A stretch of 64,000 nucleotides of DNA from an uncultured delta proteobacterium (GCA_963790475.1 CAWBOS010000010.1:736001-800000); one strand, 5' to 3'. Shown: positions 5,602 to 38,042, counted from the first letter of the stretch. A program made the numbers and translations. Notes: generated from the sequence alone by a model not told the origin.

Positions 5602-5642
5602 TTTTTTCTCCTTTTCTTAATTAGAGATGGTAATGAAATGAT

Positions 5643-5719
<77 letters not shown>

Positions 5720-6068
5720 GTTGTCTTTTCCCAAAAGGGTGACCATGAATTGTTGTTAAGGTTTATTAATACTAAAATAAGATGAAGTCAAAGAAAAATA
5801 TTATAGCCTGGTTTTCATTAAACGGAAAGCAGATATAAAACCCCGCAAAAATATTGATGTCCTAATTTCTTATTGACTTTTGAAAATCGGGCGATTATAA
5901 AAATCCAATCAAAGGTTCTTGGAGTCAACCACAGGGACCCTTTTTGTTTAAAGATTTTCGGATTTTTTGATTTCCACCAGCTGATGCTGCAGCATAATGC
6001 AGCATTGGATCTCGCATTTCATTTTCAAATATTTTCTGCTTCTTCCATAAAGAGAGAAACTGGAATGT

Positions 6069-6377
6069 ATGACAGGTCTCAAGGATCTCATCTTAATCTA
6101 TATAGACAATCAACCCGTTTTTTTTGCCCGTATTGAAAAGATAATCCCGGATAGCAAACCCGGTTGGGTGCGTATGAATTTTTTGATCCTTCAGGTCCCG
6201 GTTTCGTTGGGGGAATGGATCCTTCTGCCGGAATATGTTCAGGGTGAAGAATTTACGATGGGAGGGAAAAAAGTTCACATCGAAAAAGTTGAGGCTCCCA
6301 GGGAAGAGCCGGAACCCCTTCCCCCCAAATCAGATGGCAAAGTTGTTTCTATTTCAGATCGAAGGCGCAAAAGGTAA
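6069..6377 (+). CDS. Hypothetical protein (102 aa) with C-terminal KVVSISDRRRKR tail
   Basis: Compact beta-rich domain, Pro/Glu linker, basic tail; directly upstream of the DUF169 gene. Confidence 0.75.
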   Translation: MTGLKDLILIYIDNQPVFFARIEKIIPDSKPGWVRMNFLILQVPVSLGEWILLPEYVQGEEFTMGGKKVHIEKVEAPREEPEPLPPKSDGKVVSISDRRRKR

Positions 6378-6410
6378 AGAGTCAAAAGAACCTTTCAAGG
6401 AAAATATCTC

Positions 6411-14710: not shown

Positions 14711-15661
14711 ATGAAAAAGATAATTTTCCCTTTATTGATGCTGTTGTTTTTATTACTCGCCGGCCGGTTAGCCTATGCTGAGGAGACCAACCGGATTGTG
14801 GCCATAGTGAATGATGAAATTATTACTTTCCACGAATTGGAAAAAGCCAAAAAAAATTTTAGGCTCCCGGTGCTCGGAAAAGGGGGGCAAGAAGAACTTG
14901 AAAAACAGGTTTTATTTCAGTTAATCGATCAGAAATTGGTCGATATCCAAATAAAACGATCGGGTATCCATATTCCTCCTGAGGAGGTTGACAAGGCCGT
15001 TGCCAGGATCAGAGAGGAACGAGGTTGGACCAGTTCGGAAGATTTCTCCAAGGCCTTGCTCAAGGAAGGGCTGTCTGAACCCGAATTTAGAGATAAGATC
15101 AAAGAACAAATTTTGCGGTATAGACTGATAAGCCGTGAAATCGGGAGCAAAATTATCATCCCGGAGGACCAGGTACGGGGATTTTACCAAAAGAATAAAT
15201 CCAAATTTCAAAGGACGGAAGGGGTTCAATTGGCCCATATTTTTTTAGCGGTTTCGGAGAAAACCACGCCGGAAGAGCGCTTAAGTCAAAAAAAGAAGAT
15301 CGATGAAATTCACGACCGCCTCTTAAAAGGTGAGGATTTTGCTGAGTTGGCTCGAAAGTTTTCCCAGGATCCTTCAGCCTCTCAGGGAGGAAATCTGGGA
15401 ACGTTTGTTATTGAAGAGATAGATCCGTCTCTTCGAGAGGTGATATCCTCCATGAAGCCTGGTGAATTTAGTCCGGTCTTGCAGTCCCCGCAAGGATGGC
15501 AGATCGTCAAGTTGATTGATTTTCAGGGGGGTAAAGAAATCAGTTTTGATGAAGCCAAGGAACGGATACGAGAACAGCTCTTTCAAGAGGAAGTGGATAA
15601 ACGCTTCGGCGAATGGCTTCAAAAATTAAAGGATCGTTCTTATATCCAGATTCTTCTCTGA
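14711..15661 (+). CDS. SurA-like periplasmic chaperone / peptidyl-prolyl isomerase
   Basis: Signal peptide, NRIVAIVNDEIIT SurA N-terminus, parvulin domain DFAELARKFSQD..GGNLG. Confidence 0.88.
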   Translation: MKKIIFPLLMLLFLLLAGRLAYAEETNRIVAIVNDEIITFHELEKAKKNFRLPVLGKGGQEELEKQVLFQLIDQKLVDIQIKRSGIHIPPEEVDKAVARIREERGWTSSEDFSKALLKEGLSEPEFRDKIKEQILRYRLISREIGSKIIIPEDQVRGFYQKNKSKFQRTEGVQLAHIFLAVSEKTTPEERLSQKKKIDEIHDRLLKGEDFAELARKFSQDPSASQGGNLGTFVIEEIDPSLREVISSMKPGEFSPVLQSPQGWQIVKLIDFQGGKEISFDEAKERIREQLFQEEVDKRFGEWLQKLKDRSYIQILL

Positions 15662-15676
15662 TCCAGCTGAGATTTC

Positions 15677-16969
15677 ATGATCGTTTCTATTGCAGATTGC
15701 CGTTCATTTATTGGACAGGAAGTGACCATCCGGGGCTGGCTGGTCCATAAACGCTCCAGCGGCCAGGTCCGTTTTTTAATTCTCAGGGATGGAACGGGAA
15801 TCTTGCAGGCGATTCTATTAAAAAAAAAGGTTTCGGCCGAGGTTTTTCAGTCCTATGATCAATTAACTCAGGAATCTTCCCTATCCTTGACCGGAATTCC
15901 CCATGATGATCCCCGAGCACCGGGAGGGGTTGAATTAGAATTAAGTGGTCTCGATGTCTATCAGCTTACCAAAGAATACCCGATTTCCCCGAAAGAACAC
16001 GGCGTTGCCTTTTTAATGGAACATCGCCACCTCTGGCTCCGTTCGGCTCGGCAGCAGGCAATTCTTTGGGTCAGGCATGAATTAATCCGAGCGATTCGTG
16101 ACTTTCTGGATACCCACCATTTTATCCAACTGGATGCCCCGATATTGACTCCTGCGGCTTGTGAAGGGACGAGCACCCTTTTCAGCACCTCTTATTTCGA
16201 TCAAGGAAACGCTTATCTTTCTCAAAGCGGTCAGTTGTATATGGAGGCCGGGTCTATGGCTTTCGGCCGGGTCTATTGTTTCGGTCCATCCTTCAGGGCC
16301 GAAAAATCCAAAACCCGTCGGCATCTCACTGAATTCTGGATGGTCGAACCCGAGATAGCTTTCGCTGACTTGGAAGAGTTGATTTCCTGGGCTGAACAAC
16401 TAATCTTTTTTATGATCAGCCGGGTTGTGGAGAATCGACGCCCGGAACTTAAACTTTTGGAAAGGGACATAGCCTTTTTAGAAAATATTAAGCCCCCTTT
16501 CCCTCAACTATCATATTTACAAGCTATGGAAATTATAATAAAAGAAGGACATTCTTTTTCTTTTGGAGATGACTTGGGGGGCGACGAGGAGACTCTTGTC
16601 GGTTCGCAATTCGATCTGCCGGTGATCATCCATCGTTATCCAAGTGTTTGCAAAGCCTTTTATATGAAGAGGGATCCCGAAGACTTGCGTTTGGTTCTGA
16701 ATATGGATATTCTGGCTCCGGAAGGATATGGCGAAATTGTTGGAGGATCGGCAAGGGAGGAAGATCTGGAACAGCTTCGGGAGAGAATCAAAGAACAGAA
16801 TCTTTCCGAAGATGATCTTAAGTGGTACTTGGATCTTCGACGTTTCGGAACTGTTCCTCATGGAGGATTCGGGCTGGGATTGGAGAGGATGGTGGCCTGG
16901 GTCTGCGGATTAAAACATGTTCGCGAAGCGATCCCTTTCCCCAGAACCCTATATAGGCTTTACCCTTAA
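15677..16969 (+). CDS. asnS: Asparagine--tRNA ligase
   Basis: OB-fold anticodon domain, [48 protein letters not shown]. Confidence 0.95.
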
Positions 16970-26445: not shown

Positions 26446-28104
26446 TTAGAATTCTCTAAAATCTTCTTCCATTGGAATGATCTGTTCGGGGGTGATTTCC
26501 TTATGTTTTGGACTGGGAGAGGAGGCAGCTTTTTTCTCCTTGGAGGCCGAGGCGATCCTGAGTTTGGAATCCCTATTCCCGAAAGATGTTTGGGAAATGG
26601 ACTTGGGGGTGAGACTCCTCCTGACTTGAAGAAGGTGTTTCGGGGGAACAATCTTATACCCATTACCGTTGCCATTCCCTTTCAACACCGCCGCCAACTC
26701 CTTGATGAAACCTTTCAAACGCTCTGCCTGGGCCTTCATTTCCTCAGCCGCGGCAGCTGATTCTTGGGCATTAGTTGTGTTCTTTTGGGTCACCTTGTCC
26801 ATTTCGGCCACTGCCTTACTGACCTGAGATATGCCCTGGGCTTGTTCTTGACTGGCCGCTGCGATTTCATCAATCAGCATGCTGATTTTTCTGGAGATCT
26901 CCACATTTTTATTGAAGGCTTCCTGGGTTGCCAGGGTCAACTCATTCCCGCTTTTGACCGACTTGATCGTATTTTCAATTAAACTGCTGGTGTTTTTAGC
27001 GGCATCGGCCGCCCGCATCGCCAAGTTTCTCACTTCATCGGCTACCACGGCAAACCCGGCCCCGGCCTCTCCGGCACGGGCTGCTTCTACTGCCGCATTC
27101 AAGGCCAAAAGATTTGTCTGGAAGGCAATCTCGTCGATGGTTTTAATAATCTTGCTCGTTTCCTCGCTGGACTTGGTGATTTCTCCGATGGATTCGGCCA
27201 TCTGGGTCATATGATGACTCACGTTTCCCACGATTTGACTGGCCTCCCCCATCATGGCCCTGGCTTGTTGGGCGTTATCAGCATTCTGTTTGGTCATGGC
27301 CGACATCTCTTCCAGAGAGGAAGAGGTTTCTTCGAGTCCGGCGGCTTGTTGAGAAGACCCCTCGGCCAGCGACTGGCTGGCCGAAGAAACCTGAACCGAA
27401 GCACCGGACACATGGTCTGAACCTTCCTTAATACCGGCGACCACCCGTTGGATAGGCCTGGTAATTGAAATGGTTAGAAAAATCCCAAGAGATATCGCTA
27501 ATAAAGTCCCCAGTCCTCCTATGATCCAGGAGAACCAGGAGGCTGCAGTAGCTGTCTTTAAATTCCATTCCATCTTTTTCTGAATGGACCCCGCCTGTAA
27601 ATCAGAAAACTTCTCCAATAAACCAGAGATTTTGTTCGTTTTTGAATAAACCTCATCTTTCAATAAATTCCGAGATTCCTCAAGTTTTCCCTCTATAGCC
27701 AGATTGATCAATTTATCACGCAAAGGAAGGTATTGGATTATTTCTGACTTAAGACCGTCCACGGCCTTCCGTTCCTCTTCTGTTTTAAGGATCTTGGCGA
27801 TCTTATCGGAATTCTCGATCATTATTTGATCCAATTCTTTTATCTTGACAATATTCGTCGAGATCTCTTTGGTGTAAAGAAATTTATCCAAAAGAATATC
27901 CCTGATCAATCCGACGGATTTCTGAAACCCGACGGCCATCTCGGAAATATAAATTTGTGACTTGATATTCTTCTCCTGGATTTCTTTCCCGGCTTTAACC
28001 AGAGCACTTATCTTAGAAATTCCGTTAAATCCGACGATCATAGTAAGGCAGGCAACAATTACAAAACTTCCAATCAATTTGATGCTTAATTTCAGATTTT
28101 TCAT
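26446..28104 (-). CDS. Methyl-accepting chemotaxis protein (4HB_MCP-type sensor)
   Basis: [15 protein letters not shown]-terminus, two TMs, [37 protein letters not shown]; C-terminal EEDFREF tail resembling a CheR/CheB tethering pentapeptide. Confidence 0.95.
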
Positions 28105-28414
28105 CCTGTGGACCTCCTAGACATCGCTTTGGTCTTTCTTCTCAACCAGAGACCGTATGTTTTATTATTTTGCCACGTGAAAACTGATAGTTTTTCCTGC
28201 TTACTTAAATATTCAAAGTTATTAAAACCATCTATTCGCTTTACTGGTTTATTGTCCAGAGTTCACATAATAGGCCATCCCAGAAAATAACTGGAGGCCC
28301 AAAGGGAATTATTTAGAAAGATCCTGATCATGACTATCAGGATACTGGCTTTTCATGGGAATGGCCTATCAGGGGTCTTTTTTCGATACGGTCATTTAAG
28401 ATCTGTAATCAGAT

Positions 28415-28630
28415 CTAATAGGCCTCTCTTTTAGCCAGAATTGACCTTCTAATACCGAGATCCTGTTTGTCTTTCGCTCCCCGGATGGTCAGCAGGATTT
28501 CCTCCATATCGAAACGCCAGGAATCCCCCAATCTAAAACCCGGGATCTCTCCGTTACCGGCCAACTTATAGATGGTTGATTCAGAAAGCTTCAAGTATTG
28601 CCCCAATTCTTTAGCTGTAACGATTTTCAC
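28415..28630 (-). CDS. Small excisionase-like helix-turn-helix DNA-binding protein (HTH_17)
   Basis: VTAKELGQYLKLSESTIYKLAGNGEIPGFRLGDSWRF motif; RBS AGGAGG upstream. Confidence 0.85.
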   Translation of the reverse strand: MKIVTAKELGQYLKLSESTIYKLAGNGEIPGFRLGDSWRFDMEEILLTIRGAKDKQDLGIRRSILAKREAY

Positions 28631-28661
28631 TGGGAACGCCCTCCTTTGCCTGTTATGAAAT

Positions 28662-28689
28662 CTATCGGCATTTAGGGGTAAGAACTTTA
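28662..28689 (-). promoter_or_regulatory. Sigma-28 (FliA) promoter for the HTH gene and probably the MCP
   Basis: Minus strand reads TAAAGTTCTTACCCCTAAATGCCGATAG, i.e. TAAA-N16-GCCGATAG. Confidence 0.7.
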
Positions 28690-28710
28690 ATCGGGAAATT
28701 TGCTACTATA

Positions 28711-28826
28711 TGTAAATTACTTTTGCCAAAGGGATGTGCCGGGATGAGGCGAGATGAGGGGGGATAAGTCATTAAAATAATGAAATTTCCAGAATTACAT
28801 GGAAGAAAAGTTTGAATCTGCCAAAA
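28711..28826 (+). repeat. Left end: terminal IR plus degenerate subterminal transposase-binding-like sites
   Basis: TGTAAATTACTTTTGCCAAA; further partial copies TGAAATTTCCAGAA (~28774-28794) and ..TCTGCCAAAA (~28806-28826) resemble the right-end repeats. Confidence 0.7.
28731..28768 (+). repeat. 10-bp-period tandem repeat GGGATG-like x4 just inside the left end
   Basis: GGGATGTGCC GGGATGAGGC GAGATGAGGG GGGATAAG. Confidence 0.75.
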
Positions 28827-28958
28827 ATCAAGATATCTACCCTTCCTTAAAAAATCTAAGAACTCACCATTTTAATCATAAGTATTTAATAAGAAAAGAA
28901 AAACAATCTTTCTCTGAAAAAATAATGGAAATCTTAAATTACATTTTAAAAAAAGTCC

Positions 28959-29004
28959 TTGACAACGAATACTATTATTTAATAAAATACAGCTAAATGT
29001 TTAG
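28959..29004 (+). promoter_or_regulatory. Sigma70 promoter and operator copy 1 upstream of the MerR-like gene
   Basis: TTGACA-N18-TAAAAT overlapping AATACAGCTAAATGTTTAG (28986-29004). Confidence 0.6.
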
Positions 29005-29016
29005 AAGGCTAAATAT

Positions 29017-29623
29017 ATGGATGACCGACTATTTTTAAATAATGAAGTGAGTAAAATAACAGGATTAACCAAAAGACAAGTATTGAGCTGGACGGAAAAA
29101 GGTTTGATTCTCCCAAAGGAGCCAGCAAGAAAAGCTGGCAAGATGCGAGGATACAGTTACGAAAATCTGCTTGAGTTTGGACTAGCAAAGCATTTGATCG
29201 ATATCATAGGCCTGCAATTTTATTCGGTTAATAAAATCCTTGAAGAGATAAGAGAAGATGGCGATTTTAAGGCCTGGGCAAAAGATTATTTTAAATATTC
29301 CTTGAGCTACTCCTATAAAATAAAGAATCAAAAAAAAGAAGAGTTGGTAGGATTCTAATACACAAACAAGAGTAAATGTTTCTCAAAAAAATAAGGGGAC
29401 ACTTTATTATATCTATTCGAACTATCTGAGTGAAAAAGGAGAGTCTTATTTAGAAACCATTAGGCTGATCTCTCCTTGGGGGGTTTTGGATACAGTGAAA
29501 GCCTTTCAACAGGCAGGCCTAAATTCTGAAGAAATAGAAACGACCTTTAAGGATGGTATTATTGTTAATTTGGGTGAGATAAAGGAAGAAATAGACAAAG
29601 GAATCAAAAACATTAAAAAATAG
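29017..29623 (+). CDS. MerR-family HTH transcriptional regulator (probable element repressor); one +1 frameshift at ~29350
   Basis: EVSKITGLTKRQVLSWTEKGLILP..RGYSYENLLEF MerR HTH. The open +1 frame from 29351 (DSNTQTRV...GIIVNLGEIKEEID..) to TAG 29623 would give ~200 aa. Confidence 0.75.
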
Positions 29624-29637
29624 TTTTTTTTGGTCGT

Positions 29638-29659
29638 TATAATACATCTAGATGTTTAG
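29638..29659 (+). promoter_or_regulatory. -10 box and operator copy 2 upstream of the transposition operon
   Basis: TATAAT overlapping AATACATCTAGATGTTTAG with perfect palindrome ACATCTAGATGT; 17/19 identical to 28986-29004. Confidence 0.65.
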
Positions 29660-29685
29660 CTGCCTAATTATATGGAGGTTTTAAA

Positions 29686-29892
29686 ATGAGACTTTGGCTA
29701 AAAGTTAAAATACTGGACAATTATAAAACCCAGCGTGCTTTTGCCGTGTCCTGTTCCAGAACCGAAGACTGGATCTCACGAATAGTCCGGGGAATTAAAG
29801 ATCCGCCTAAAGAAGAAAAAGAACTGATCGCCCAAAAACTTGGTGCCAGCGACCCTGAACAAATCGACCATTTATTCTTCAACAAAGAGTGA
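29686..29892 (+). CDS. Small XRE/Cro-like HTH protein (Ner/Cro-position gene)
   Basis: TQRAFAVSCSRTEDWISRIVRGIKDP XRE HTH; RBS GGAGG; overlaps the transposase start. Confidence 0.8.
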   Translation: MRLWLKVKILDNYKTQRAFAVSCSRTEDWISRIVRGIKDPPKEEKELIAQKLGASDPEQIDHLFFNKE

Positions 29893-31601
29893 AAATGGAT
29901 ATTCCTAAGACCTGGCAAGAGGAAAAGGCAGAGAGGCGGGAAGAGATAGTACGGGAATATCTTGCAGCCGCCGAAACCGTAGCCAGGAAAAACAAAACAT
30001 CGTTTAAAAAGCAATTCGCGAAATTAAAGGGAATCACTTATCGAACTCTCGATAGCTGGGTCCATCTTTTTAAAGATGTTGGACCACGTGGCTTGCTCCC
30101 TGCCGAGAGATCAAGACGAGGATTTTTTGGAAAGAATCCCGACATAGCCCTATCTTTCGAACAAAAGGTTATGCGAAGAAATGGCCTCCTGATCAAGGTA
30201 GCAATAGAGGAAACAATCAAAGAATATCCGGACAGAAATCTTCCTTCTCCTAAAACCTATTATAATTATATGGAATCAAGGTTTGGAAAACCTCTGTTAG
30301 ACATGGTCCAGTCTCCGGAAAAATACGCCAGAGAACATTCCATCCATATAAACAGAGATTGGAATATCGGGATTAATCGGCTTTGGGTAGGTGATACGAA
30401 ACAGTGTGATCTTTATGCTCTACTAGGGAAAAAACCTGTCCTGGTATCATTGGTCGCCTTCATGGATTGTCATAGCCGATTATTCACGGGGTATGTTCTG
30501 ACCGCCTCCCCTAATTCTTTAGAGATAGGCCAAGCATTCTATAATGGAATCATGAAACACGGCGTCCCAAAAGCCGTCCATATTGACAGGGGCAAAGATT
30601 ATAAAAGTAAGTACTTCAGTGGGGAAAAAGGAGAAAAAAATAAGAATCATGAGTTTTTCGATGATCTTGAAAAAACGAGGATTCCAGGAATACTTCGGCA
30701 GCTTAATGTCGAAATTATTCAAGCGGCCCCTTATAACGCCAAAGAAAAATTAATAGAAAGTAATTTCGGATTTTTAACTGAAAGCTTACGTGATGTACCT
30801 GGATACCGGGGGCATAATTTAAAAACTCGGCCAAAAAAGCTTTCCCACGAAATTAAATCTAAAAAACTCCTTTCTTTTGAAGAAGCCTGTCAAGAGATAG
30901 AGAACCGAATTGAAAGACGTAATAATGAAATTAAGCACACGACAACCAAGGAAATACCTATTTCCTTTTATAAGGATTTCGTTCCTCAAATTCCTTCTCA
31001 GGCTTTTCTAAATTATCTCCTCATGGAAGTGCATTTCGTGAAAGCTAGAAACTCCGGCGTTAATATCGATGGTCATTTTTACCGTGGCGAGGATCTCTTC
31101 CCGATCGCCGGTGAGCTGGTCGAGGTTAGAAGAAATCCAAAGGATATAGGCCGCGTGGCTGTCATTCACAAAAACGAATATTTTGGAATGGCCTTTGAAG
31201 AACTGCTAGGCGATCACTGGAGCCAAATAACTCTTCAAAACCGAAATACAGCAAAAAAAATCAGGCGAAAAATCCACAAGATGCAAAAAGAGATTTGGGG
31301 TTGGGAAAATATTACTGATGATCCTCGCCGAATGGAAATTAAAGTTGCTGAAGAAGAGGCCCTCCCAAATAAAGAGGATATTAGTCCGGCTCCAAAATCC
31401 AACGTCATCTCTATTATTGACCCAATAAGGGAAAGAATTTCTCGAAAAATCGATAAGGATTTCAATCAGACTAAAAATGAGTCAGAAGAGGCTCGGGTTG
31501 CTGCCAATGGAGAAAGTAGAAATGTCCTTCCCTCACGACTCTTAAATGCCTTGGGTGGACTTTCATTCGGCAGAAAAAAACCAGACGATGAAGATTTTTA
31601 A
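29889..31601 (+). CDS. Mu A/TnsB-like DDE transposase
   Basis: HTH (GITYRTLDSWV..GPRGLLP), RNase-H core WVGDT, FMDCHSR, VPKAVHIDRGKDY, NAKEKLIESNF; C-terminal Mu-transposase-C-like beta domain (GVNIDGHFY..VEVRRNPKDIGRV). Confidence 0.92.
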   Translation: MKMDIPKTWQEEKAERREEIVREYLAAAETVARKNKTSFKKQFAKLKGITYRTLDSWVHLFKDVGPRGLLPAERSRRGFFGKNPDIALSFEQKVMRRNGLLIKVAIEETIKEYPDRNLPSPKTYYNYMESRFGKPLLDMVQSPEKYAREHSIHINRDWNIGINRLWVGDTKQCDLYALLGKKPVLVSLVAFMDCHSRLFTGYVLTASPNSLEIGQAFYNGIMKHGVPKAVHIDRGKDYKSKYFSGEKGEKNKNHEFFDDLEKTRIPGILRQLNVEIIQAAPYNAKEKLIESNFGFLTESLRDVPGYRGHNLKTRPKKLSHEIKSKKLLSFEEACQEIENRIERRNNEIKHTTTKEIPISFYKDFVPQIPSQAFLNYLLMEVHFVKARNSGVNIDGHFYRGEDLFPIAGELVEVRRNPKDIGRVAVIHKNEYFGMAFEELLGDHWSQITLQNRNTAKKIRRKIHKMQKEIWGWENITDDPRRMEIKVAEEEALPNKEDISPAPKSNVISIIDPIRERISRKIDKDFNQTKNESEEARVAANGESRNVLPSRLLNALGGLSFGRKKPDDEDF

Positions 31602-31613
31602 AGGAGATTTACA

Positions 31614-32591
31614 ATGTCCCCTAAACAGGCGTTAAAGCTGGATTCAATAGATAATCTGAATTCCGAAAATGTGGACAATGTGCGCGCGAGACTTAATTTA
31701 GAAATAAATAAGGGTGGGTCTTCTCAAAATCGTCTTGCCAACAAATCCGGTCTTAGCAGCTCCACCGTTAGCCTGTTTATGCGTAACAAATACCCAGGGA
31801 ATAATCTTGAAATTGCAAAAAAAATAGAACCCTTTTTGGAACCGTTTCTGGAACAAAAAAAGGATGGTCTCGGGTTATCCGCCAAGAATTTCAGAATTCT
31901 CTTAACCAGCATAGCTTTAAAAATGTGGTTTGCCATTCAAATAGCAGACCAAGAGGGCGACATGGTGGCCATTCTTGGTTCAAGTGGAATCGGTAAAACG
32001 ATAGTCTTAGAGGAATATCGACGCCAAGAAGTGAGCCCTATTTTAATAACGGTCAACATAACAACGAGGGCGACAGGACCGGTACTTGACGCGATAGGGC
32101 GTGAATTAGAGATAGGTGTCCGTATAGGCACCCAAAGCCATTTTTTGGCAAAAATTATAAAGTTTCTCAGAATCTCGCCTCGTCTCTTGTTGTTTGATGA
32201 AGTTCATCTTTTATCATGGGAGAGCCTTGAGCTTATCCGGACAATTCATGATGCTGCCCATGTCGGGATCGTCTTTTGTGGTCAGGAGCGGTTTTATGAG
32301 CAGATGCGCGGATCGCGTCGATCCTATCTGTATGATCAATTCTCTTCAAGGATCGGTTGCCTTTGCCGCCTAACTTCAATTGAAAAAAAAGATGTTAGGA
32401 TGCTCTGCGAGGCGATTTATTCAAATCTTGACAATAGATGTTTGGAATTTTTGTTTTCCAAAGCCTCTGGACCGGGAAAATTTAGAGTAATGACTAAAAT
32501 TTTAAAGAGAGCGGTCTTTATCGCTGAAAAAGAAAAAGTTCCCGTGACCTTGGACCTTCTTAAAGAGGCTAATTCACTTCTTCTTCTATAG
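31614..32591 (+). CDS. Mu B-like AAA+ transposition ATPase with N-terminal HTH
   Basis: SQNRLANKSGLSSSTVSLFMRNKYPG HTH, Walker A GSSGIGKT, Walker B LLLFDEVHLL, LELIRTIHD, QFSSRIG. Confidence 0.92.
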   Translation: MSPKQALKLDSIDNLNSENVDNVRARLNLEINKGGSSQNRLANKSGLSSSTVSLFMRNKYPGNNLEIAKKIEPFLEPFLEQKKDGLGLSAKNFRILLTSIALKMWFAIQIADQEGDMVAILGSSGIGKTIVLEEYRRQEVSPILITVNITTRATGPVLDAIGRELEIGVRIGTQSHFLAKIIKFLRISPRLLLFDEVHLLSWESLELIRTIHDAAHVGIVFCGQERFYEQMRGSRRSYLYDQFSSRIGCLCRLTSIEKKDVRMLCEAIYSNLDNRCLEFLFSKASGPGKFRVMTKILKRAVFIAEKEKVPVTLDLLKEANSLLLL

Positions 32592-32600
32592 GAGATTGTT

Positions 32601-32957
32601 ATGGAAATGTCTGTTGAAGCCCGGCAGGTTTTTGATTCCCTTGATGAAAAAACGAAAAGGGTCATTCAGGGAAACTATTCTTTTAAAAAACTCCGGAATG
32701 AAGCTATAGTTGACCTGGGGAAAAAAGGTGTTAATGGACGCCTTTTGGCTGAGATTACCGGCCTTAGTACTTCCAGTGTGAGCCGCATTTTGGAGACGGG
32801 GGGGCAAACGAGATATAAACCCGACAGGAGAGAGGTAGAATTGTGGAAACTCAAGGAAATGATTGATGGACTCTATAAGCGATACAGGCGCTTTATCTTG
32901 GCCAGAGACGAAAGGAAAGGAAAAGGGTTAGGGATGGGTAGGGGGAAGAAGAGTTAA
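32601..32957 (+). CDS. HTH protein, Mor/C-like transcription activator candidate
   Basis: RNEAIVDLGKKGVNGRLLAEITGLSTSSVSRIL resembles the Mor-family RN..I....G.....LA...GLS...V.RI HTH. Confidence 0.6.
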   Translation: MEMSVEARQVFDSLDEKTKRVIQGNYSFKKLRNEAIVDLGKKGVNGRLLAEITGLSTSSVSRILETGGQTRYKPDRREVELWKLKEMIDGLYKRYRRFILARDERKGKGLGMGRGKKS

Positions 32958-32990
32958 ACGTTTTTAAACGGGTTTTAAACGGTTTTAAAT
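32953..32990 (+). repeat. Phased TTTAAAC tandem repeats (~10-bp period)
   Basis: GTTAAACG TTTTTAAACG GGTTTTAAAC GGTTTTAAAT directly before the RBS of ORF 33002. Confidence 0.7.
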
Positions 32991-33001
32991 AGGAGGAAGA
33001 C

Positions 33002-33283
33002 ATGAAGAGTAAAGTAAAGTCTGAAAAAATTATTCAATTTCCCTTAAATCAAAAGATTATAAAACAACAGAAGGAAATGAAAAACTTGATGTTTGTAGAT
33101 AAAGAAAAGGCATATAAATACATTCGATCTGTGTTTGGTTGGGGTGCCTTATTGATAGCAATGGGCAATCACTGGAAATCTCCCGAGATAACTGACTGGG
33201 GAAACAAAATTCAGCTCTTGGGCAAAGAATTGGCAGCATTATTCGATTTTTCAATAGAAGATGTCGGAAAATATTTTATATAG
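33002..33283 (+). CDS. Hypothetical protein (93 aa)
   Basis: RBS AGGAGG; N-terminal KIIQFP motif; no recognised family. Confidence 0.7.
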   Translation: MKSKVKSEKIIQFPLNQKIIKQQKEMKNLMFVDKEKAYKYIRSVFGWGALLIAMGNHWKSPEITDWGNKIQLLGKELAALFDFSIEDVGKYFI

Positions 33284-33293
33284 GTAATCCGAC

Positions 33294-33352
33294 TTGCCCT
33301 GGATAGGCTGATCACCGAAAAGGCGGAAACTCTCACCGCCCTGCCAGGGCAA
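33294..33352 (+). ncRNA. C4/CI-like structured antisense RNA candidate
   Basis: Closing stem TTGCCCTGG/CCAGGGCAA encloses two hairpins, GG-CTGATCA-CC and GGCGG-AAACTCTCA-CCGCC. Loop CTCTCA is complementary to TGAGAG at 33359-33364. Architecture resembles P1 C4 and P4 CI RNAs. Confidence 0.6.
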
Positions 33353-33375
33353 AACAAATGAGAGGCAACTTAGAG

Positions 33376-33412
33376 AGGGTTGCGATAGCCGGATGCTATC
33401 CAACCCTTTTTT
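33376..33412 (+). terminator. Intrinsic terminator/attenuator immediately before the tape-measure gene
   Basis: AGGGTTG-C-GATAGC-CGGAT-GCTATC-CAACCCT followed by a T-run, a few nt before RBS AGGAG. Confidence 0.75.
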
Positions 33413-33426
33413 ATTAGGAGAAGACA

Positions 33427-35766
33427 ATGGCCGAAGTAAAAATTGAAATCACCGCCCAAGATAACACGTCCGGGGTTTTTAAAAACATCCAGGCTTCGAG
33501 CAGCTCCGCCCTTAATACAATGGCCGCCGAAACCAGGAATTATACCGAGGGCAGTAAAAGCCTGGTCACGTCCCTGAAGGAACACTGGATCGCTGCTTCA
33601 GTCGCCGTTTACGGGGCCTGGAGGATGGTGAATGAGGCTATGGACCTGGCCAAGCTCGGGGCCAAGGCCCAGCAATCCGAAGAGTCGTTCCGCACTGTAA
33701 CCAGGGCCTATGGGGAAGATGCCAGCAGTCTTTTAGAAAAGATGAAACAGGTTTCCTCCGGGATGATCGATGACTCGGCCTTAATGCAGAGGGCAGTAAA
33801 AGGACTGCAACAGGGACTAGCCGGAGAGCAGATTACTTCCATCCTGGAAATAGCGCGGACCTCGGCTCGAACGGCTGGGAAGGACGTTGTCGAAGCCTTC
33901 GATCAGATCACCGATGCAACGGCCAATCAGATGACCCGCGGGCTGAAGGCGATGGGTATTGTGGTCGACCAGAATAAGGCTTTTGAAGACCAGGCTAAAG
34001 CATTGGGAACGGTAACAGCCGGTCTTACTGAACAGCAACAATCTCAAGCCCTGGCCAACGCCGTCATCGCTGAAGGCACCCGGCAAATGAAGGCGATGGG
34101 GGATGTTACTGAAAACGCCAGTGAGAAATTTCAAAAAATGAATGCTACGATCACAGGATTTAAAGAGAATGTGGGAAAGGAGTTATTGATCGGGATAGAG
34201 AAAGTCAAAAATATCCCGAGTCTGTTAGGGAAGGGAGCGCTTTTGGCTCTTGAGGGCCTGGGAAATCCAACCGTCGCAATGTGGGCAAATATAGAAAAAG
34301 CATCCGGCGATGCCGCAAAAAAAATAAGTGACGCAGAAAAGGCCTATATAAAGATGATGTTATCTATTCAGCAAAAGGTTGACACCTTTAATTTGCTTAA
34401 GGAGAAGATTAAGGAGGTCACTCTATCTGTTCAGGAATTCGATTATAAAATGCAGGACTTGGATCCCAATGCGAATGAAACGACCAAGAGGATAGCCGAG
34501 ATTACCTCTCAAGTCCAAAAAATGAAGGAGGAGATAAGGAAATCCGTAGGTGAAAATGTCTTGAGCCAACTGGCCCCAAAGATCGACATGGGAGCTATGG
34601 AGGGAATTCGGAATGTCTATAAACAGCAGCTTAAAGACTTCGACGACCTAATACTCTCCATGTCCAATGCCCGCAAGGAAGGGATTATTAAGGACCTAGC
34701 CGAAATCGACAAAACCGAAGCGGATGCATTTAAGAAATTCAGCAATAACCAAACGATGATTACGGCCATTGCCAAGGCCGAGGATCTGGCCCGGATCGAC
34801 AGCCTGAAAAAATGGAAAGATTCCCTGATCTCGATGCACAATGAGGCCATCGCCAAGGCGCGGGAATATTATAAGACGGTGGATGACCTTAATATGGCCC
34901 TGAGCAAGAGTGCCATCTTTATGGATCAGTGGAAGAAGGGATTTCCGACCGACCAGACATCGGTTTTCAAGAATGAACAGCAAAGTCTGCAACTGATCAT
35001 CGATCAGGCCAACAATAACCCTATCGCCGCCAACCTGCAGTCGGCCATGACGGCCATCGAGAGTTTCATGCAGAAGAATAATCAATTGCGGAATGAACTG
35101 GTTGACACTCCCGGGAAAGGGCTGCAATCGATTTTTTCAGATACCGACGCGGCCAATCTATACAATCAATATGCCGGTTTTCAGACTGCCCTGGCCGGGG
35201 TAAGGGACGCGGCCAAATCCGCGGGCGACGCCGAAATGTCCGTGGCCATGCAACTGGCTGATATGATCAAGCCGGTCGACACGGCGATGGATTTATTGAA
35301 ATCAAAATTCACCGATTATGTCGATATGATCTCGGTTCAAAGGCAGGTGACCCTGGACACTTCACCGGCCATCGATTCCATCCAGGCCATAATCACAAAA
35401 ACCACGGAGGCCCTGGGCTATATCCAGCAGCTTGGCCGCTATAATACCTCCTCTACTTCCGCCATGTCCCGTCTGGCGCCCTCGGCTCCGGCTGCCGACG
35501 TGGCGCCTCCTGATTTCCCGGTTACGGCAGTTGGTACTCCCTATGTGCGCCGCTCGGGACTGGCCTGGATCGACCAGGGCGAGCGGGTGATGACTGCCGA
35601 CCAGAATAAATCCTACAGCGGCGGATCGGGAGGAAAGACCTTGAGCTTTTCATTCGGAGATATCCATGTCCATGGAACAAACGACCCCGGCGAAATAGCT
35701 CGCAAGATCATGAAGCCATTGATTTCGGAACTTCGCGAATATAACCATTTAATCGGAGGAAATTAA
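33427..35766 (+). CDS. Phage tail tape-measure-like protein (779 aa)
   Basis: TMP-type N-terminus VKIEITAQDNTSGVF; Ala/Gln-rich helical body with LKAMGIVVD; C-terminal AVGTPYVRRSGLAWIDQGERVMTADQN motif typical of TMP C-termini. Confidence 0.85.
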   Translation: MAEVKIEITAQDNTSGVFKNIQASSSSALNTMAAETRNYTEGSKSLVTSLKEHWIAASVAVYGAWRMVNEAMDLAKLGAKAQQSEESFRTVTRAYGEDASSLLEKMKQVSSGMIDDSALMQRAVKGLQQGLAGEQITSILEIARTSARTAGKDVVEAFDQITDATANQMTRGLKAMGIVVDQNKAFEDQAKALGTVTAGLTEQQQSQALANAVIAEGTRQMKAMGDVTENASEKFQKMNATITGFKENVGKELLIGIEKVKNIPSLLGKGALLALEGLGNPTVAMWANIEKASGDAAKKISDAEKAYIKMMLSIQQKVDTFNLLKEKIKEVTLSVQEFDYKMQDLDPNANETTKRIAEITSQVQKMKEEIRKSVGENVLSQLAPKIDMGAMEGIRNVYKQQLKDFDDLILSMSNARKEGIIKDLAEIDKTEADAFKKFSNNQTMITAIAKAEDLARIDSLKKWKDSLISMHNEAIAKAREYYKTVDDLNMALSKSAIFMDQWKKGFPTDQTSVFKNEQQSLQLIIDQANNNPIAANLQSAMTAIESFMQKNNQLRNELVDTPGKGLQSIFSDTDAANLYNQYAGFQTALAGVRDAAKSAGDAEMSVAMQLADMIKPVDTAMDLLKSKFTDYVDMISVQRQVTLDTSPAIDSIQAIITKTTEALGYIQQLGRYNTSSTSAMSRLAPSAPAADVAPPDFPVTAVGTPYVRRSGLAWIDQGERVMTADQNKSYSGGSGGKTLSFSFGDIHVHGTNDPGEIARKIMKPLISELREYNHLIGGN

Positions 35767-35802
35767 GACTCCGGAATTTTTGAACAGAAGAGGAGGAAAA
35801 TC

Positions 35803-37014
35803 ATGGATCGTATCACCAATAAAAGCCTTTTAAGTGACATCGAGAGGACCTTATTTTATCATGCTCATGGGCAAGGCATGGCCGGAAGAAACGAGGTTGA
35901 TAAGGCGCAGGATGCCCTTATTAAGACCTTTATTCCGGAATACGATGCTGGCGGTCTCGGCGGGTTTAGTGGAATCAGGGAGGCCTATATTCACTTAACC
36001 GGGGATGACGAGTTTAGAGGTAGGGCGGGCTTTAATCTCTCAAGGGTCTCAAGTGGCTTGAGGGCTTGTGCTGATTTTGATTCAGGCACTTTCTCCTTTG
36101 CCCTGCAAAATGCCCTTAATATGTACCTGTCCAAGGCTTATAAGTCCTTTCCTTATCACGAGGAAATATTCATCTCTGAAAAAAAGACGGCCACCGACTT
36201 CAGGACAATCCAGTCCCTTCAGTTGGGGTATCTCGGGGATCTTCCAGATATCGATCCGGAGACAGGCGATTATCAGTCTCTTGGTAATTATGGAGACACC
36301 GAGTCGCAATATAAAATTGGGCAGAAAGGTGGAATCACTTGGGTGACGAGAAAACACGTCATAAATGACTTGGTTGGATTGATAAAAGCATTGCTTGACA
36401 GGAAAGCGCGAGCGGCCAGGAGAACACATGCTAAATATGTCTGGAGCTTTTTTATCAACAACGCTATCTGTCCCGATGGAACGGCATGGTTTACCGCGCC
36501 GCACGGGAACTTAGGGTCAAGTGCCTTGGATTTTGATCCCCTGGCTGCTGCGATCACCGCCCTGGCCGATATGGTGGAACCGGGGTCAGGAGAAAAACTT
36601 GGAATGGACCTTCCCACTTTCAATTGGAATTTAGTTATCCCAGTCGCTTTGTGGAAGTTGGCTGTGTCAAAAAATCAGGCGGAGTATTATTATACCGCAG
36701 CAGATGACTTAACCACCAAAACGGAGAATCCAAATTGCCGGTTGTTTGGGGATCGCAATGAAAGAATTATTATTTGTCCCTTTTTCACAGATCTCAATGA
36801 TTGGGGGGTTATTAGAGATAAGGAGGATGTTCCGATAGTTGAAATGTCTTATCTTAACGGGCACGAGGAACCTGAACTTGTCCTTGCCCATCCTGACGAT
36901 TTACCGGGAACCGAAAGAGGTCTTCATGGTGATGATTATGGCTATAAGATTCGGCATGAATATGGTGGAACCCTGGCTGATCACCAAGGCGGATTTCGGT
37001 CCGTTGTGTCCTGA
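35803..37014 (+). CDS. Mu gpT-like major capsid protein (no fused protease)
   Basis: GIREAYIHLTGD, FSFALQNAL, DFRT..LGYLGDLP, KGGITWVTRKHVINDLVG, ARAARRTHAKYVW, WFTAPHGNL and YKIRHEYGG match the Mu-like gpT capsid domain; RBS GAGGAGG. Confidence 0.85.
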   Translation: MDRITNKSLLSDIERTLFYHAHGQGMAGRNEVDKAQDALIKTFIPEYDAGGLGGFSGIREAYIHLTGDDEFRGRAGFNLSRVSSGLRACADFDSGTFSFALQNALNMYLSKAYKSFPYHEEIFISEKKTATDFRTIQSLQLGYLGDLPDIDPETGDYQSLGNYGDTESQYKIGQKGGITWVTRKHVINDLVGLIKALLDRKARAARRTHAKYVWSFFINNAICPDGTAWFTAPHGNLGSSALDFDPLAAAITALADMVEPGSGEKLGMDLPTFNWNLVIPVALWKLAVSKNQAEYYYTAADDLTTKTENPNCRLFGDRNERIIICPFFTDLNDWGVIRDKEDVPIVEMSYLNGHEEPELVLAHPDDLPGTERGLHGDDYGYKIRHEYGGTLADHQGGFRSVVS

Positions 37015-37037
37015 AAATAATAGTTTCCCAAGGCCCC

Positions 37038-37117
37038 GCCCATAGTTTCCCTCCCGTTCTATGGGCTCCAGGAGGGAGCGGTTTCTGACCCAAAGCAGAA
37101 ATCGCTCTCTACCTGGA
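37038..37117 (+). other. Two adjacent hairpins downstream of the capsid gene
   Basis: GCCCATAG/CTATGGGC (37038-37066) and TCCAGG-AGGGAGCGGTTTCTG/CAGAAATCGCTCTCT-A-CCTGGA (37067-37117); no U-tract. Confidence 0.55.
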
Positions 37118-37131
37118 ATTAAAGGAATCGA

Positions 37132-37554
37132 ATGAAAAAAAGTGAATTTTTAACCAATATTGCCCAAGGATATAATTCTAAAATTGAAACGGTGTTTTTT
37201 TGTAACGAGAAGCGTTTGCCAGATGGTGCCTGGGGTGTGGCAAACGCCCAACCCAACTTGGAATGGTATCGAATCTTGCTTAATGATAAACTTCTTTCCT
37301 GCCCAATCCGCGCCCTTGGGGTCTTGTTCCATGAGCTAGGCCATATTGTTCTGAATCATTTTTATTCGGTGGATACTGAAAGTGAGGAGAGAGCCGCAAT
37401 CGAATGGGCATTTAGGGAAATGGGAACAATCGACCAAGAGGGAAAGATAAAGAAGGAAAACTCCTTTTGCTATGTTTGTATATCTCTCTATTCAAAATTA
37501 TGCCTTAAGAAATTTCATGACCAAATACGACCCCAGAAAAGCAGAACAATATAG
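37132..37554 (+). CDS. ImmA/IrrE-family (HExxH) metallopeptidase-like protein
   Basis: ILLND..LGVLFHELGHIVLNH...EERAAIEWA zincin motif with downstream Glu. Confidence 0.75.
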   Translation: MKKSEFLTNIAQGYNSKIETVFFCNEKRLPDGAWGVANAQPNLEWYRILLNDKLLSCPIRALGVLFHELGHIVLNHFYSVDTESEERAAIEWAFREMGTIDQEGKIKKENSFCYVCISLYSKLCLKKFHDQIRPQKSRTI

Positions 37555-37726
37555 GGGACGGCCACATTCTCATTATCGGAACCAGGGCAAGCATAAATGC
37601 AGGTTATGTGGGAAGAAAACAGACAATCATTGGAACTGCCCGGCTTGCCTGGATAGGATGGCCAAGGGAGAGATTGAATCGCCGGTAACCGATGTCTTGG
37701 GCTATGATCTCGACGTGCCGCTATAG
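37517..37726 (+). CDS. Small zinc-finger protein (CxxC-x9-CxxC)
   Basis: From ATG 37517: ...HKCRLCGKKTDNHWNCPACLDR; last gene before the right end. Confidence 0.6.
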   Translation: MTKYDPRKAEQYRGRPHSHYRNQGKHKCRLCGKKTDNHWNCPACLDRMAKGEIESPVTDVLGYDLDVPL

Positions 37727-37782
37727 ATAAAGGGCCTTTTAAACCCCATTTAATGGCCCTTTTTCCCCCTCCGAATCCCAGT

Positions 37783-37824
37783 TTTTGGAAATTTCAAGTT
37801 ACATTTTGGCAAAATGAAGTTACA
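37783..37824 (-). repeat. Right end: two tandem 21-bp transposase-binding-like repeats ending in ACA
   Basis: TTTTGGAAATTTCAAGTTACA (37783-37803) directly followed by TTTTGGCAAAATGAAGTTACA (37804-37824). Confidence 0.8.
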
Positions 37825-38042
37825 CGTTATAAGAGGGGAATCCGGAAGATCGGCGTATTTTTGGAGATAATCTACCATATATTGTATACATTTTTTAAAT
37901 AGCTCCTTTCTATTGTATTTTTTTCTTTACAAAATGATTTTTTTCATTAAAATTAAAATGAGAATCGAATCGGATGACTGATTGGCAATAAACCGTAATA
38001 AGATAGGTGGACTCCTTTTATATTGGAAGGGAATATTCTAAA

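Follow-up and report, generated by a model that had tools for sequence, protein, structure and literature searches.

A Mu-type transposable mini-element with a stand-alone capsid gene and a tape-measure homologue, a candidate transposition-based phage satellite

Phage satellites that encode a capsid or tape-measure protein of their own have been documented. The EPIP satellites of Mycolicibacterium, 11 kb in size, encode major capsid and tape-measure proteins, with smaller heads and an altered tail length (bioRxiv 2025, PMC12822802). In the PLE satellites of Vibrio cholerae, the satellite's own tape measure is reported to replace that of the helper, and chimeric shorter tails result (Nature 2026, PMC12987554); the same paper lists putative tmp genes in cf-PICIs. 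The SaPIbov5 protein Ccm is described as a helper-capsid homologue that redirects head size. The cf-PICIs, as a bioRxiv 2022 preprint presents them, carry a full head and packaging module with all proteins needed for small capsids.

Here we describe an element of 9,114 bp, bounded by TG...CA inverted repeats and inserted next to smc in the genome of an uncultured delta proteobacterium. Coordinates refer to the window, the whole 64,000-nt stretch of DNA that was analysed (GCA_963790475.1 CAWBOS010000010.1:736001-800000). With EPIPs the window element shares small size and its own capsid and tape-measure genes; compared by description, EPIPs have a serine integrase, small terminase, scaffold and head-tail adaptors, whereas the window element has MuA and MuB and none of those. 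The satellite-encoded tape measure is shared with PLEs. These add a tail chaperone of their own and, in certain variants, a baseplate hub as well, integrate by a recombinase and remodel the helper's capsid protein, bringing none themselves (PMC12987554). SaPIbov5 Ccm and the capsid-forming PICIs are reported to share with the element a satellite-encoded homologue of the helper capsid for satellite-sized heads; cf-PICIs differ in having int-alpA-pri backbones and the full module, whereas the capsid is the only constant head gene in the family of the window element. The cf-PICI set of int-alpA-pri, portal, protease, connectors and small terminase was not found in the window element, and the Rfam int-alpA RNA motif is shared with cf-PICIs by name only.

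With Mu, its siphophage relatives and laboratory mini-Mu the element shares MuA, MuB, TG...CA inverted ends, left-end repressor and Ner-like genes and a capsid of the Mu gpT/Phage_capsid_4 type. In contrast to the related full phages of 41.6-43.4 kb, the 9.1-kb element lacks genes for portal, terminase, protease, tail tube and lysis, and with them the full virion and lysis complement of a Mu-like phage (~37-43 kb); of the phage fusion gene it has the C-terminal half, the capsid, as a gene by itself. Unlike laboratory mini-Mu, it represents a natural conserved lineage, not an engineered deletion. As a small mobile element with a partial virion gene set and phage-derived morphogenesis and regulatory genes, it fits the generic description of a satellite.

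The left terminal inverted repeat, TGTAAATTAC..., lies at 28711..28730 and the right one, ...GAAGTTACA, at 37805..37824; the two form a 20-nt pair (I4) that is 85% complementary with TG...CA termini. In three genomes of the same genus (L190, L191 and L193) an HTH gene directly adjoins smc, and none of the 30 relatives examined carries the element capsid. Judged from this empty site, the left junction falls at ~28703-28710; weak homology to the congeners' empty sites restarts directly after 37824. Examined for the 5-bp target-site duplication of Mu-like phages, the flanks read ctata and cgtta in the window and ttata and atttt in a second copy, and the congeners' intergenic empty sites are too diverged to fix the junction. 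This second copy, mosaic but syntenic and with its own terminal inverted repeats, lies on contig C12 of the same genome. Words of the element were also seen at small shares (0.25 and 0.09) in two DNA sequencing runs; no RNA run was among those listed, which carries no information on expression.

The leftmost gene, in the place that repressors occupy in related elements, encodes a MerR-type HTH regulator and is a candidate repressor (29017..29358, +; Pfam MerR_1, E 1.2e-9). A 68-aa HTH protein in the Mu Ner position (29686..29892, +; HTH_31, E 3.2e-6) is conserved just 5' of MuA, with 50% identity in the C12 copy and further members (cluster 'orf68') in L107, L111, L118 and L146. It is followed by the MuA-like DDE transposase (29889..31601, +; Mu-transpos_C, E 4.2e-8, and rve; phrog_310 transposase, E 5.4e-56) and the MuB-like AAA+ target-capture ATPase (31614..32591, +; AAA_22, E 2.3e-15; Phage-MuB_C, E 2e-8; phrog_296, E 4.8e-49). 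Two small genes come next, neither with a significant family match in Pfam and PHROG searches: orf118 (32601..32957, +), a conserved family protein, possibly HTH, with 87% identity in the C12 copy, and orf93 (33002..33283, +), placed in the slot of family gene c7 by synteny only. The structural operon is headed by an int-alpA RNA motif (Rfam RF02996; 33296..33365, +) that matches full-length with 47.8 bits against a gathering score of 35.8, and an intrinsic-terminator-like hairpin with a T run (33372..33412, +) lies between this motif and the tape-measure RBS. Folding of 33290-33426 gave an MFE of -47.9 kcal/mol (z -3.95), equalled by 0 of 200 shuffles. The motif occupies the same position in 7 of 11 related mini-element loci versus 0 of 7 full-phage loci, and the hairpin and T run are retained with differing stem sequences in L006, L011, L012, L107 and L146.

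Two virion genes follow, the 779-aa ORF P0001 (33427..35766, +; ATG start, TAA stop at 35764-35766) and the 403-aa ORF P0002 (35803..37014, +; ATG start), both intact. The sequence-only reading of this DNA had pointed to a 36-nt gap between them and a strong ribosome-binding site, and both are confirmed by the ORF list and the sequence: AGAGGAGGAAAATC stands upstream of the P0002 ATG (35803), with a strong Shine-Dalgarno sequence, AGGAGG. These are genuine genes and not chance frames: homologues are numerous for both proteins, and comparison with the C12 paralogue gave dN/dS values of 0.16 (P0001) and 0.12 (P0002), with dS near saturation. All ORFs of the element are intact, and their dN/dS against the second copy is 0.12-0.33. 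Apart from P0001 and P0002 the element has no virion genes: portal, terminase, tail tube and lysis genes are missing, nothing in it was recognisable as a small terminase, pac site or tail chaperone, and Pfam and PHROG searches of its proteins gave no integrase or primase either.

P0002 matched a single Pfam family, Phage_capsid_4 (E 2.6e-25, residues 94-399), as well as phrog_29592 (E 3e-47, C-terminal part) and the NCBIfam prohead protease/MCP fusion NF045541 (E 8.5e-35, positions 345-630 of 634). The NCBIfam and PHROG fusion families are thus matched by their C-terminal capsid halves only, in agreement with the earlier claim of a capsid without a protease domain. Since a profile of the capsid alignment gave only a chance-level match to PDB sequences (E 0.023), we turned to a fold search. 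The AF2 model, of moderate confidence (pLDDT 66, pTM 0.61), had 194 PDB matches at E<=1e-3, those listed being HK97-type capsids, encapsulins and nanocages derived from them; P0002 is accordingly assigned the HK97 fold. Encapsulins share with it this fold, a stand-alone shell gene and no portal nearby. We rejected an encapsulin identity, given the sole Pfam match and the sequence kin of P0002, which are phage capsid fusions; its gene also differs in lying in a Mu-type transposon beside a tape-measure homologue. By sequence, P0002 stands nearest to the capsid domains of real phages (37-47% identity), in which protease and scaffold are fused to the capsid in one polypeptide. In Mu-like siphophages the capsid is thus one half of a larger gene, a protease-scaffold-capsid fusion, and the P0002 gene is that half by itself. 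Comparison of the capsid phylogeny with Mu-like phages, a check that the sequence-only reading had proposed, placed 36 stand-alone capsids in one clade (SH-aLRT 99), sister (95) to 35 fused capsids of Mu-like phages. In this tree the stand-alone capsids of the element family appear as one old clade, sister to the capsids of ~42-kb phages. No portal, terminase or maturation protease/scaffold to accompany P0002 was found in the element or in its genome.

For P0001, Pfam and NCBIfam gave no direct significant match, and in PHROGs it matched the tape-measure family phrog_3779, 'tail length tape measure', with E 7.1e-6. Over residues 1-254 it shares 51-61% identity with the N-terminal parts of proteins of 739-1200 aa, among them P0008, P0020, which carries Pfam Tape_meas_lam_C (E 3.8e-8), and a 965-aa tape measure of phage contig L089 (51% identity with residues 1-261). 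The latter is encoded in the canonical position, downstream of tail-tube (phrog_290) and chaperone (phrog_313) genes, whereas the P0001 gene lies outside such a context, between orf93 and the capsid gene. A C-terminal motif of P0001 is common to P0008 and the L133 tape measure, and the middle 470 residues have almost no detectable homology except one 27% stretch. The two ends of P0001 thus match phage tape measures by sequence and the middle is divergent; the 779-aa protein is on this basis a homologue of the tail tape-measure proteins of Mu-like siphophages. A Kyte-Doolittle scan of tape-measure hydrophobic segments revealed no consistent difference between elements and phages. Lack of an HK97 fold in the 403-aa protein, or of tape-measure homology in the 779-aa protein, had been named beforehand as grounds for giving up the assignments; fold and homology were both looked for and both found, and the two gene identities stand.

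Related elements of 8-12 kb number in the dozens in metagenomes. They were found by alignment-based searches; neither P0002 against genome contigs nor P0008 against viral contigs, each used as a single query protein, retrieved any. Several contigs are whole elements, with conserved gene order over 8.1-9.6 kb, and one ends precisely at its inverted repeats, which suggests active copies at multiple sites. The capsid is always present. Its constant neighbours are a small phage-derived gene, c1, which lies 5' of the capsid in most relatives and is absent from the window element, and, downstream, a HExxH metallopeptidase (orf140) and a zinc-ribbon protein, c3; neither c1, c3 nor c7 has a match in PHROGs or NCBIfam. 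Small genes of the family distinguish it from the phages: orf140 occurs in 35 of 62 short-capsid loci versus 0 of 96 fused-capsid loci, c3 in 28/62 versus 1/96 and orf118 in 20/62 versus 0/96. GemA is also present in relatives. The tape measure, by contrast with the constant capsid, is carried by 6 of the 16 elements that could be seen in full; it may precede or follow the capsid gene and is drawn from differing PHROG families. It is an accessory gene and not a conserved partner of the capsid. Two elements, L011 and L007, carry a portal gene, and in the minimal elements the capsid is the only recognisable structural gene. The pair had been proposed to form a two-gene morphogenesis module in tail-before-head order. 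That order is real in the window element but confined to a sub-lineage (this element, L006, L011 and L132), and the module itself dissolves in the family at large; of the earlier interpretation, the gene identities and a plausible satellite context survive.

The satellite context is plausible: this is a MuA/MuB mini-element that lacks portal, terminase and tail tube, and capsid- or tape-measure-encoding satellites are on record. The related full phages are exemplified by L089, with terminase, portal, MuF, fused protease-capsid gene, tube, chaperone and tape measure; in four of five fused-capsid phage records MuA lies 16-19 kb upstream, the exception being a 26-kb partial contig. No co-resident helper candidate was seen in 11 mini-element genomes, which are mostly incomplete MAGs. 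In the genome of the window element, searches with Phage_portal, Portal_Mu and Terminase_6C came back empty, as did tblastn with the portal, terminase, MuF, tube and chaperone proteins of L089, and a second, fused capsid gene of the same family is absent from it and from all 10 other mini-element genomes. The 0/11 count of co-resident fused-capsid phages would also fit an element that excludes such phages.

We favour, with a probability of roughly 55%, the reading that this Mu-type transposable mini-element is a transposition-based phage satellite, a natural 'mini-Mu'. Upon infection of the cell by a Mu-like siphophage relative, the element would replicate by its own transposition, and the structural operon behind the int-alpA motif and terminator would be switched on. 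P0002 could then form, or co-assemble into, heads of reduced size with room for ~9-12 kb but not for the helper genome; P0001 may enter the helper's tail machinery via its conserved ends and yield chimeric tails of another length (~117 nm for its 779 aa, near 0.15 nm per residue). The helper would supply portal, terminase, tail tube and lysis functions, and interference with it (anti-phage protection) would arise as a side effect. We infer particle formation and packaging as well as the capsid size. A bolder joint reading, which we hold tentatively and at somewhat less than even odds, is that the family constitutes an undescribed class of satellite that multiplies by replicative transposition of the Mu type where others excise and replicate. 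Its members would always bring a truncated capsid of their own, with tape measure or portal optional, and be packaged by headful from chromosomal sites, with flanking host DNA, into small heads; by our own estimate, the capacity of a T=3 shell is ~12 kb, given T=7 for the 42-kb helper.

To our knowledge, the known satellites (P4, PICIs, cf-PICIs, PLEs, PICMIs and EPIPs) integrate by recombinases and replicate as excised circles, and in the full-text literature searched, with subscription journals outside its coverage, no report of a MuA/MuB-based satellite was found. Such a family would bring a new replication and packaging logic to satellite biology and would be the natural counterpart of laboratory mini-Mu elements. 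Some members, the window element included, would then carry just the proteins that set head size and tail length, and generalised transduction over short ranges would often be the work of these elements in anaerobic sediment bacteria. The graded series of capsid, capsid with tape measure, and capsid with tape measure and portal could reveal which parts are brought and which stolen, and the family could show what happens to head size when a capsid is freed from its fused protease and scaffold.

A considerably less probable account is anti-phage interference without transfer. Here the truncated capsid, and sometimes the tape measure, would be a dominant-negative subunit on which the head and tail assembly of incoming Mu-like phages founders, and the transposon would persist by protecting its host. 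P0002 is indeed without the protease and scaffold domains of its phage relatives, P0001 retains only the interaction-prone ends, full phages with this capsid family are missing from all 11 genomes, and tail assembly is a documented defence target (PMC12987554). However, a pure decoy would need no whole HK97 core held at dN/dS 0.12 across an old clade, portal genes occur in relatives, the whole-element contigs suggest active copies, and PADLOC (2023 library) returned no match for P0001 or P0002. Satellites usually interfere as well, so that this account overlaps the satellite reading.

Far more doubtful is a self-sufficient capsid-forming transposon, whose shell would make encapsulin- or GTA-like particles helper-free, the helical P0001 perhaps being housed inside as an internal or cargo protein. 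The encapsulins among the top fold matches of P0002, the capsid as sole recognisable structural gene of minimal elements and the helper-free genomes (0/11) are compatible with it. The nearest relatives of P0002 are nevertheless phage capsid domains and not encapsulin families, P0001 has the ends of a tail tape measure by homology, and we know of no way of loading dsDNA into an HK97 shell without portal and terminase. A decaying Mu-like prophage whose two structural genes are chance leftovers of deletion is the least probable account and is rejected as largely refuted: every recognisable gene derives from Mu-like phages and most virion genes are missing, but ORFs and inverted repeats alike are undamaged, the ORFs are under selection, dozens of loci show this reduced gene set again, the capsids form a monophyletic clade that has the family-specific genes orf140 and c3, and the int-alpA motif is kept in the family and not found in phage loci.

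Two further genes lie downstream of the capsid. A zinc-ribbon protein, orf84 (37472..37726, +), overlaps the end of orf140 and takes the position of c3 in other elements; it is 86% identical in the C12 copy and has a CxxC...CxxC motif with weak zinc-ribbon Pfam matches. The mini-element-specific orf140 (37132..37554, +) is predicted from its motif and AF2 model (pLDDT 88.9) to be HExxH zinc-metallopeptidase-like, and H67-E68-x-x-H71 together with C57, C113, C116 and C124 is invariant across 24 sequences of the family. Foldseek gave it no match at E<=1e-3, and a profile search against PDB sequences reached E 0.24 at best; its best fold matches are weak (E 0.009-0.08) and comprise ZMPSTE24, CapP, abylysin and a protease of DNA-protein-crosslink repair (6mdw). 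In the ESM Atlas, orf140 falls with IrrE/M78-like viral clusters at 0.91-0.94, which we note as a lead only.

The tape-measure and capsid genes lie within a mobile element of the MuA/MuB type whose ends are intact. It spans 28711–37824 of the window (9,114 bp) and is bounded by a pair of 20-nt inverted repeats (28711–28730 and 37805–37824) with TG...CA termini. Its left part opens with a MerR-type regulator and a 68-aa HTH protein, followed by a transposase of the MuA type (Mu-transpos_C, rve; phrog_310, E = 5.4e-56), an ATPase of the MuB type (Phage-MuB_C; phrog_296, E = 4.8e-49) and two small ORFs; the right part carries the tape measure, the capsid, a 140-aa HExxH protein and an overlapping 84-aa zinc-ribbon protein. 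The neighbours are host genes, with a chemotaxis receptor and a small HTH gene before the left end, and smc and ftsY beyond the right one. In three genomes of the same genus (L190, L191 and L193) the HTH gene directly adjoins smc; this empty site agrees with the inverted repeats being the element ends. A 5-bp target duplication could not be confirmed by comparing the flanks with the empty sites. The capsid gene was found in none of 30 relatives searched (13 from the same genus). G+C content is 0.37–0.41 over the regulator–MuA–MuB half (28001–32000) and 0.44–0.49 over the structural half and flanks (32001–38000), a contrast in line with a mosaic history. Just outside the element, upstream of smc, lies a 14-nt string, ACCATATATTGTAT (37873–37890), which is partly kept in the same-genus empty sites and also occurs near the right end (last 70 bases) of the unrelated contig L137. 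This recurrence may be a coincidence, or may mark a preferred target or regulatory sequence.

Both structural genes are intact ORFs on the plus strand. The tape measure P0001 (779 aa) occupies 33427–35766 and ends in a TAA stop at 35766, and the capsid P0002 (403 aa) runs from an ATG at 35803 to 37014. These positions, the 36-nt intergenic gap and the strong ribosome-binding site upstream of the capsid ATG, all proposed by the sequence-only reading, were confirmed by the ORF list and by the sequence, in which AGAGGAGGAAAATC stands before that ATG. Homologues are numerous for both proteins, and PADLOC gave no match for either. A second syntenic element is present on another contig of the same genome, C12 (L006, 3575–13144), where it is bounded by TG...CA repeats of its own at a distance of 9,570 bp. 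Compared with this copy, dN/dS is 0.16 for P0001 and 0.12 for P0002 at a dS near saturation (1.4–1.8), and the substitution pattern marks both as real genes under purifying selection. The regulator, MuA and MuB of the two elements are only ~30–38% identical, whereas orf118 (a small gene of the element), the tape measure, the capsid, orf140 (the HExxH protein) and orf84 (the zinc-ribbon protein) are 63–86% identical. The two copies are therefore mosaic, with modules exchanged.

Every capsid family matched by P0002 aligns via its capsid part, in agreement with the earlier claim that the protein lacks a protease domain. Pfam Phage_capsid_4 covers residues 94–399 (E = 2.6e-25); phrog_29592 is matched over profile positions 526–890 of 893 (E = 3e-47) and the NCBIfam 'prohead protease/major capsid protein fusion protein' over positions 345–630 of 634 (E = 8.5e-35), and the PHROG 'major head and protease' fusion families match by their C-terminal parts only. 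An AlphaFold2 model built from an alignment with 35 homologues (pLDDT 66, pTM 0.61) had 194 PDB matches at E ≤ 1e-3; those listed are HK97-type capsids, encapsulins and their nanocage derivatives. Since the model matches HK97-type structures, the HK97 fold predicted for the 403-aa protein is upheld.

The direct family match of P0001 is weak (phrog_3779, tail length tape measure, E = 7.1e-6), and Pfam and NCBIfam contained no significant match. Its residues 1–254 are 51–61% identical to the N-termini of proteins of 739–1200 aa, one of which bears the Pfam lambda tape-measure C domain. In the viral contig L089, a 965-aa homologue (51% identity over residues 1–261 and 27% over 315–472) is encoded at the canonical tape-measure position, in a gene order that comprises large terminase, portal, MuF-like head morphogenesis protein, a 769-aa protease-scaffold-capsid fusion belonging to the same PHROG as P0002, tail tube (phrog_290), tail chaperone (phrog_313) and then large distal tail genes. 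A short C-terminal motif is also common to P0001 and phage tape measures. Homology to real tape measures is clear from these alignments, and the phrog_3779 match and N-terminal identity bear out the earlier assignment of the 779-aa protein. The ends of P0001 are thus conserved and its middle is divergent. Full-length homologues (n = 8) are 737–852 aa long (median 789), and proteins sharing only the N-terminal domain (n = 22) are 739–1200 aa long (median 1004.5).

The window element holds no virion genes besides the tape measure and capsid; a small terminase, a pac site and a tail chaperone were not recognised in it. Neither Phage_portal nor Terminase_6C matched anywhere in the genome itself (20 contigs, estimated 100% complete and 9.7% contaminated), and tblastn with the L089 terminase fragment, portal, MuF, tube, chaperone and distal tail proteins found none of them there. 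The Portal_Mu profile was likewise without a match in this genome, but it matched none of the control genomes either.

Alignment-based scans retrieved 80 loci each from species genomes and metagenomes, and 64 + 20 from viral contigs. An HMM survey of loci L006–L186 separated 96 with a long capsid ORF (470 aa or more) from 62 with a short one, some of the latter being long genes truncated where their contig stops. The long ORFs encode fusions of protease, scaffold and capsid and belong to full phages, which in IMG/VR are contigs of 41.6–43.4 kb. MuA lies 16–19 kb upstream of the fused capsid on the same contig and strand in four of five records checked, the exception being the 26-kb partial contig L089. 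Short-capsid elements follow the order repressor, Ner-like gene, MuA, MuB, orf118 (GemA in some), c7, c1, capsid, orf140 and c3, where c7, c1 and c3 are small gene families; five contigs of 8.1–9.6 kb (L128, L132, L137, L140 and L146) are whole or near-whole elements, and that of L146 starts and stops on its own inverted repeats. orf140 occurs at 35 of 62 short-capsid loci and none of 96 fused-capsid loci, and c3 at 28/62 and 1/96, respectively; both are therefore specific to the small elements. c1 (32/62 and 33/96) is phage-derived and located immediately upstream of the fusion gene in phages.

A maximum-likelihood tree built from the last 340 residues comprises 36 stand-alone capsids with mini-element surroundings, 90 fused ones and 3 whose length is intermediate; duplicates, ORFs below 340 aa and short ORFs that lie ≤100 nt from a contig start or lack context were left out. 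A branch with SH-aLRT 99 separates all 36 stand-alone capsids from the other sequences, and their sister group (support 95) consists of 35 fused capsids plus a single one of intermediate length. The nine rows of this sister group that bear a taxon label are Thermodesulfobacteriota (7) and 'Deltaproteobacteria' MAGs (2), and three of these capsids (L016, L018 and L019) were among the records checked for upstream MuA. By this tree, the family of the element is old and monophyletic, with the capsids of ~42-kb Mu-like siphophages as sisters of its own. Truncation thus happened once and the lineage has diversified since, which rules out that the element is a random remnant. One 530-aa capsid of intermediate length, in L014 (9425–11017), groups inside the fused-capsid clade; its locus has MuA at 4901–7111, MuB also close upstream of the capsid and a c3-like gene at 15266–16057, and may be on the way to a mini-element, either independently or as an intermediate. 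A related element on the 9,543-bp metagenome contig L126 is circularly permuted, running from MuB through capsid and c3 to repressor and MuA; at the junction (~5421–6046) the ends overlap imperfectly, with repeated TTCTGTCAAACCTCG-type motifs on both sides. The permutation could stem from insertion in tandem or from a circular form, or be an artefact of assembly.

The stretch from MuB to c3 or orf84 can be followed in 16 distinct elements: that of the window, L006, L009, L011, L012, L013, L107, L114, L118, L126, L128, L133, L135, L137 (identical to L138), L140 and L146. Only six carry a tape measure, so the fixed two-gene module of the sequence-only reading does not hold; the pair is an accessory combination in a capsid-centred family. 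The tail-before-head order is real in the window, L006 and L011, where the tape measure replaces c1 directly upstream of the capsid, and in the partial locus L132, but in L012, L013 and L133 it lies downstream, after orf140 or another small ORF; it is also downstream of the capsid in the partial loci L158 and L007. The tape measures belong to different families, including those of L013 (Pfam TMP_3, E = 1.8e-17; phrog_973, E = 6e-38), L007 (phrog_27166, E = 7e-17) and L133 (phrog_339, E = 1e-4; ~19–30% local identity to P0001). A portal homologue (phrog_10963) is encoded downstream of the capsid in L011 (11245–12759, E = 1e-41) and L007 (5043–6098, E = 5e-16). The family therefore always brings a capsid and variably a tape measure or portal, the cargo ranging from capsid only to capsid, tape measure and portal.

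The structural genes are headed by an int-alpA RNA motif (Rfam RF02996; 33296–33365, plus strand; 47.8 bits, above the gathering score of 35.8), followed by a stable, terminator-like hairpin with a T run (33372–33412, plus strand) just upstream of the tape-measure RBS; the fold energy z-score is −3.95, and none of 200 shuffles folds as well. The motif takes the same place in 7 of 11 related mini-element loci scanned (L006, L011, L012, L107, L128, L137 and L146; not found in L013, L132, L133 and L140) and in none of seven full-phage loci, each covering ~10 kb either side of the anchor gene (the capsid, or the tape measure for three loci). Terminator stems differ in sequence across related loci, yet pairing is kept. 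Motif and hairpin could together form a small RNA that stops at its own terminator, or else a leader gating read-through.

We favour, at a probability of roughly 0.55, the reading that the element is a satellite of ~42-kb Mu-like siphophages; the earlier interpretation thus retains its gene identities and satellite logic, without the fixed module. The element would replicate by its own transposition, and the operon behind the int-alpA motif would be expressed during helper growth. P0002, without protease and scaffold, would make or co-assemble into smaller heads, and P0001 would enter helper tail assembly via its conserved N- and C-terminal ends, giving chimeric tails. At ~0.10–0.16 nm per residue, a figure from the PLE paper (PMC12987554), 779 aa would correspond to ~117 nm and a 1000-aa phage protein to ~150 nm. 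If the 42-kb relatives are T=7, volume scaling (our own arithmetic) would give a T=3 head room for ~12 kb and a T=4 head room for ~18 kb, and a T=3 headful would fit the 9-kb element with Mu-style host flanks. P0001 and P0002 may build particles or act as the decoys that the sequence-only reading also proposed, and the results fit both roles. Against the satellite reading, no helper phage was found and, as noted above, the element shows no recognisable small terminase, pac site or tail chaperone. A fused-capsid phage of this family was present in none of 11 genomes, this one and 10 others with a mini-element (mostly incomplete MAGs). This absence fits helpers arriving by infection, and it fits equally well with the element acting mainly to exclude Mu-like phages.

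The satellite reading has parallels among known elements. SaPIbov5 Ccm is reportedly a capsid homologue that redirects head shape, and cf-PICIs are said to encode a whole small capsid of their own. A 2026 report showed that PLE virions take up the tape measure encoded by the PLE and exclude the helper's, tails being 10 nm shorter where 10–15 nm was expected for a 95-aa difference, and it noted putative tmp genes in cf-PICIs (PMC12987554). EPIPs, satellites of 11 kb, carry genes for a capsid protein and for a tape measure, and have smaller heads and different tails (PMC12822802). All four use integrases, unlike the MuA/MuB element of the window; our literature search, with most subscription journals outside its scope, found no transposition-based satellite.

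Immediately downstream of the stand-alone capsid gene, orf140 (37132–37554, plus strand) has relatives of 120–170 aa, whose alignment contains an invariant HExxH and four invariant cysteines. Its model is confident (pLDDT 88.9) and weakly matches the folds of ZMPSTE24, CapP, abylysin and a DNA-protein-crosslink repair protease (PDB 6mdw; E = 0.009–0.08). orf140 could be a repressor-cleaving or capsid-processing protease.
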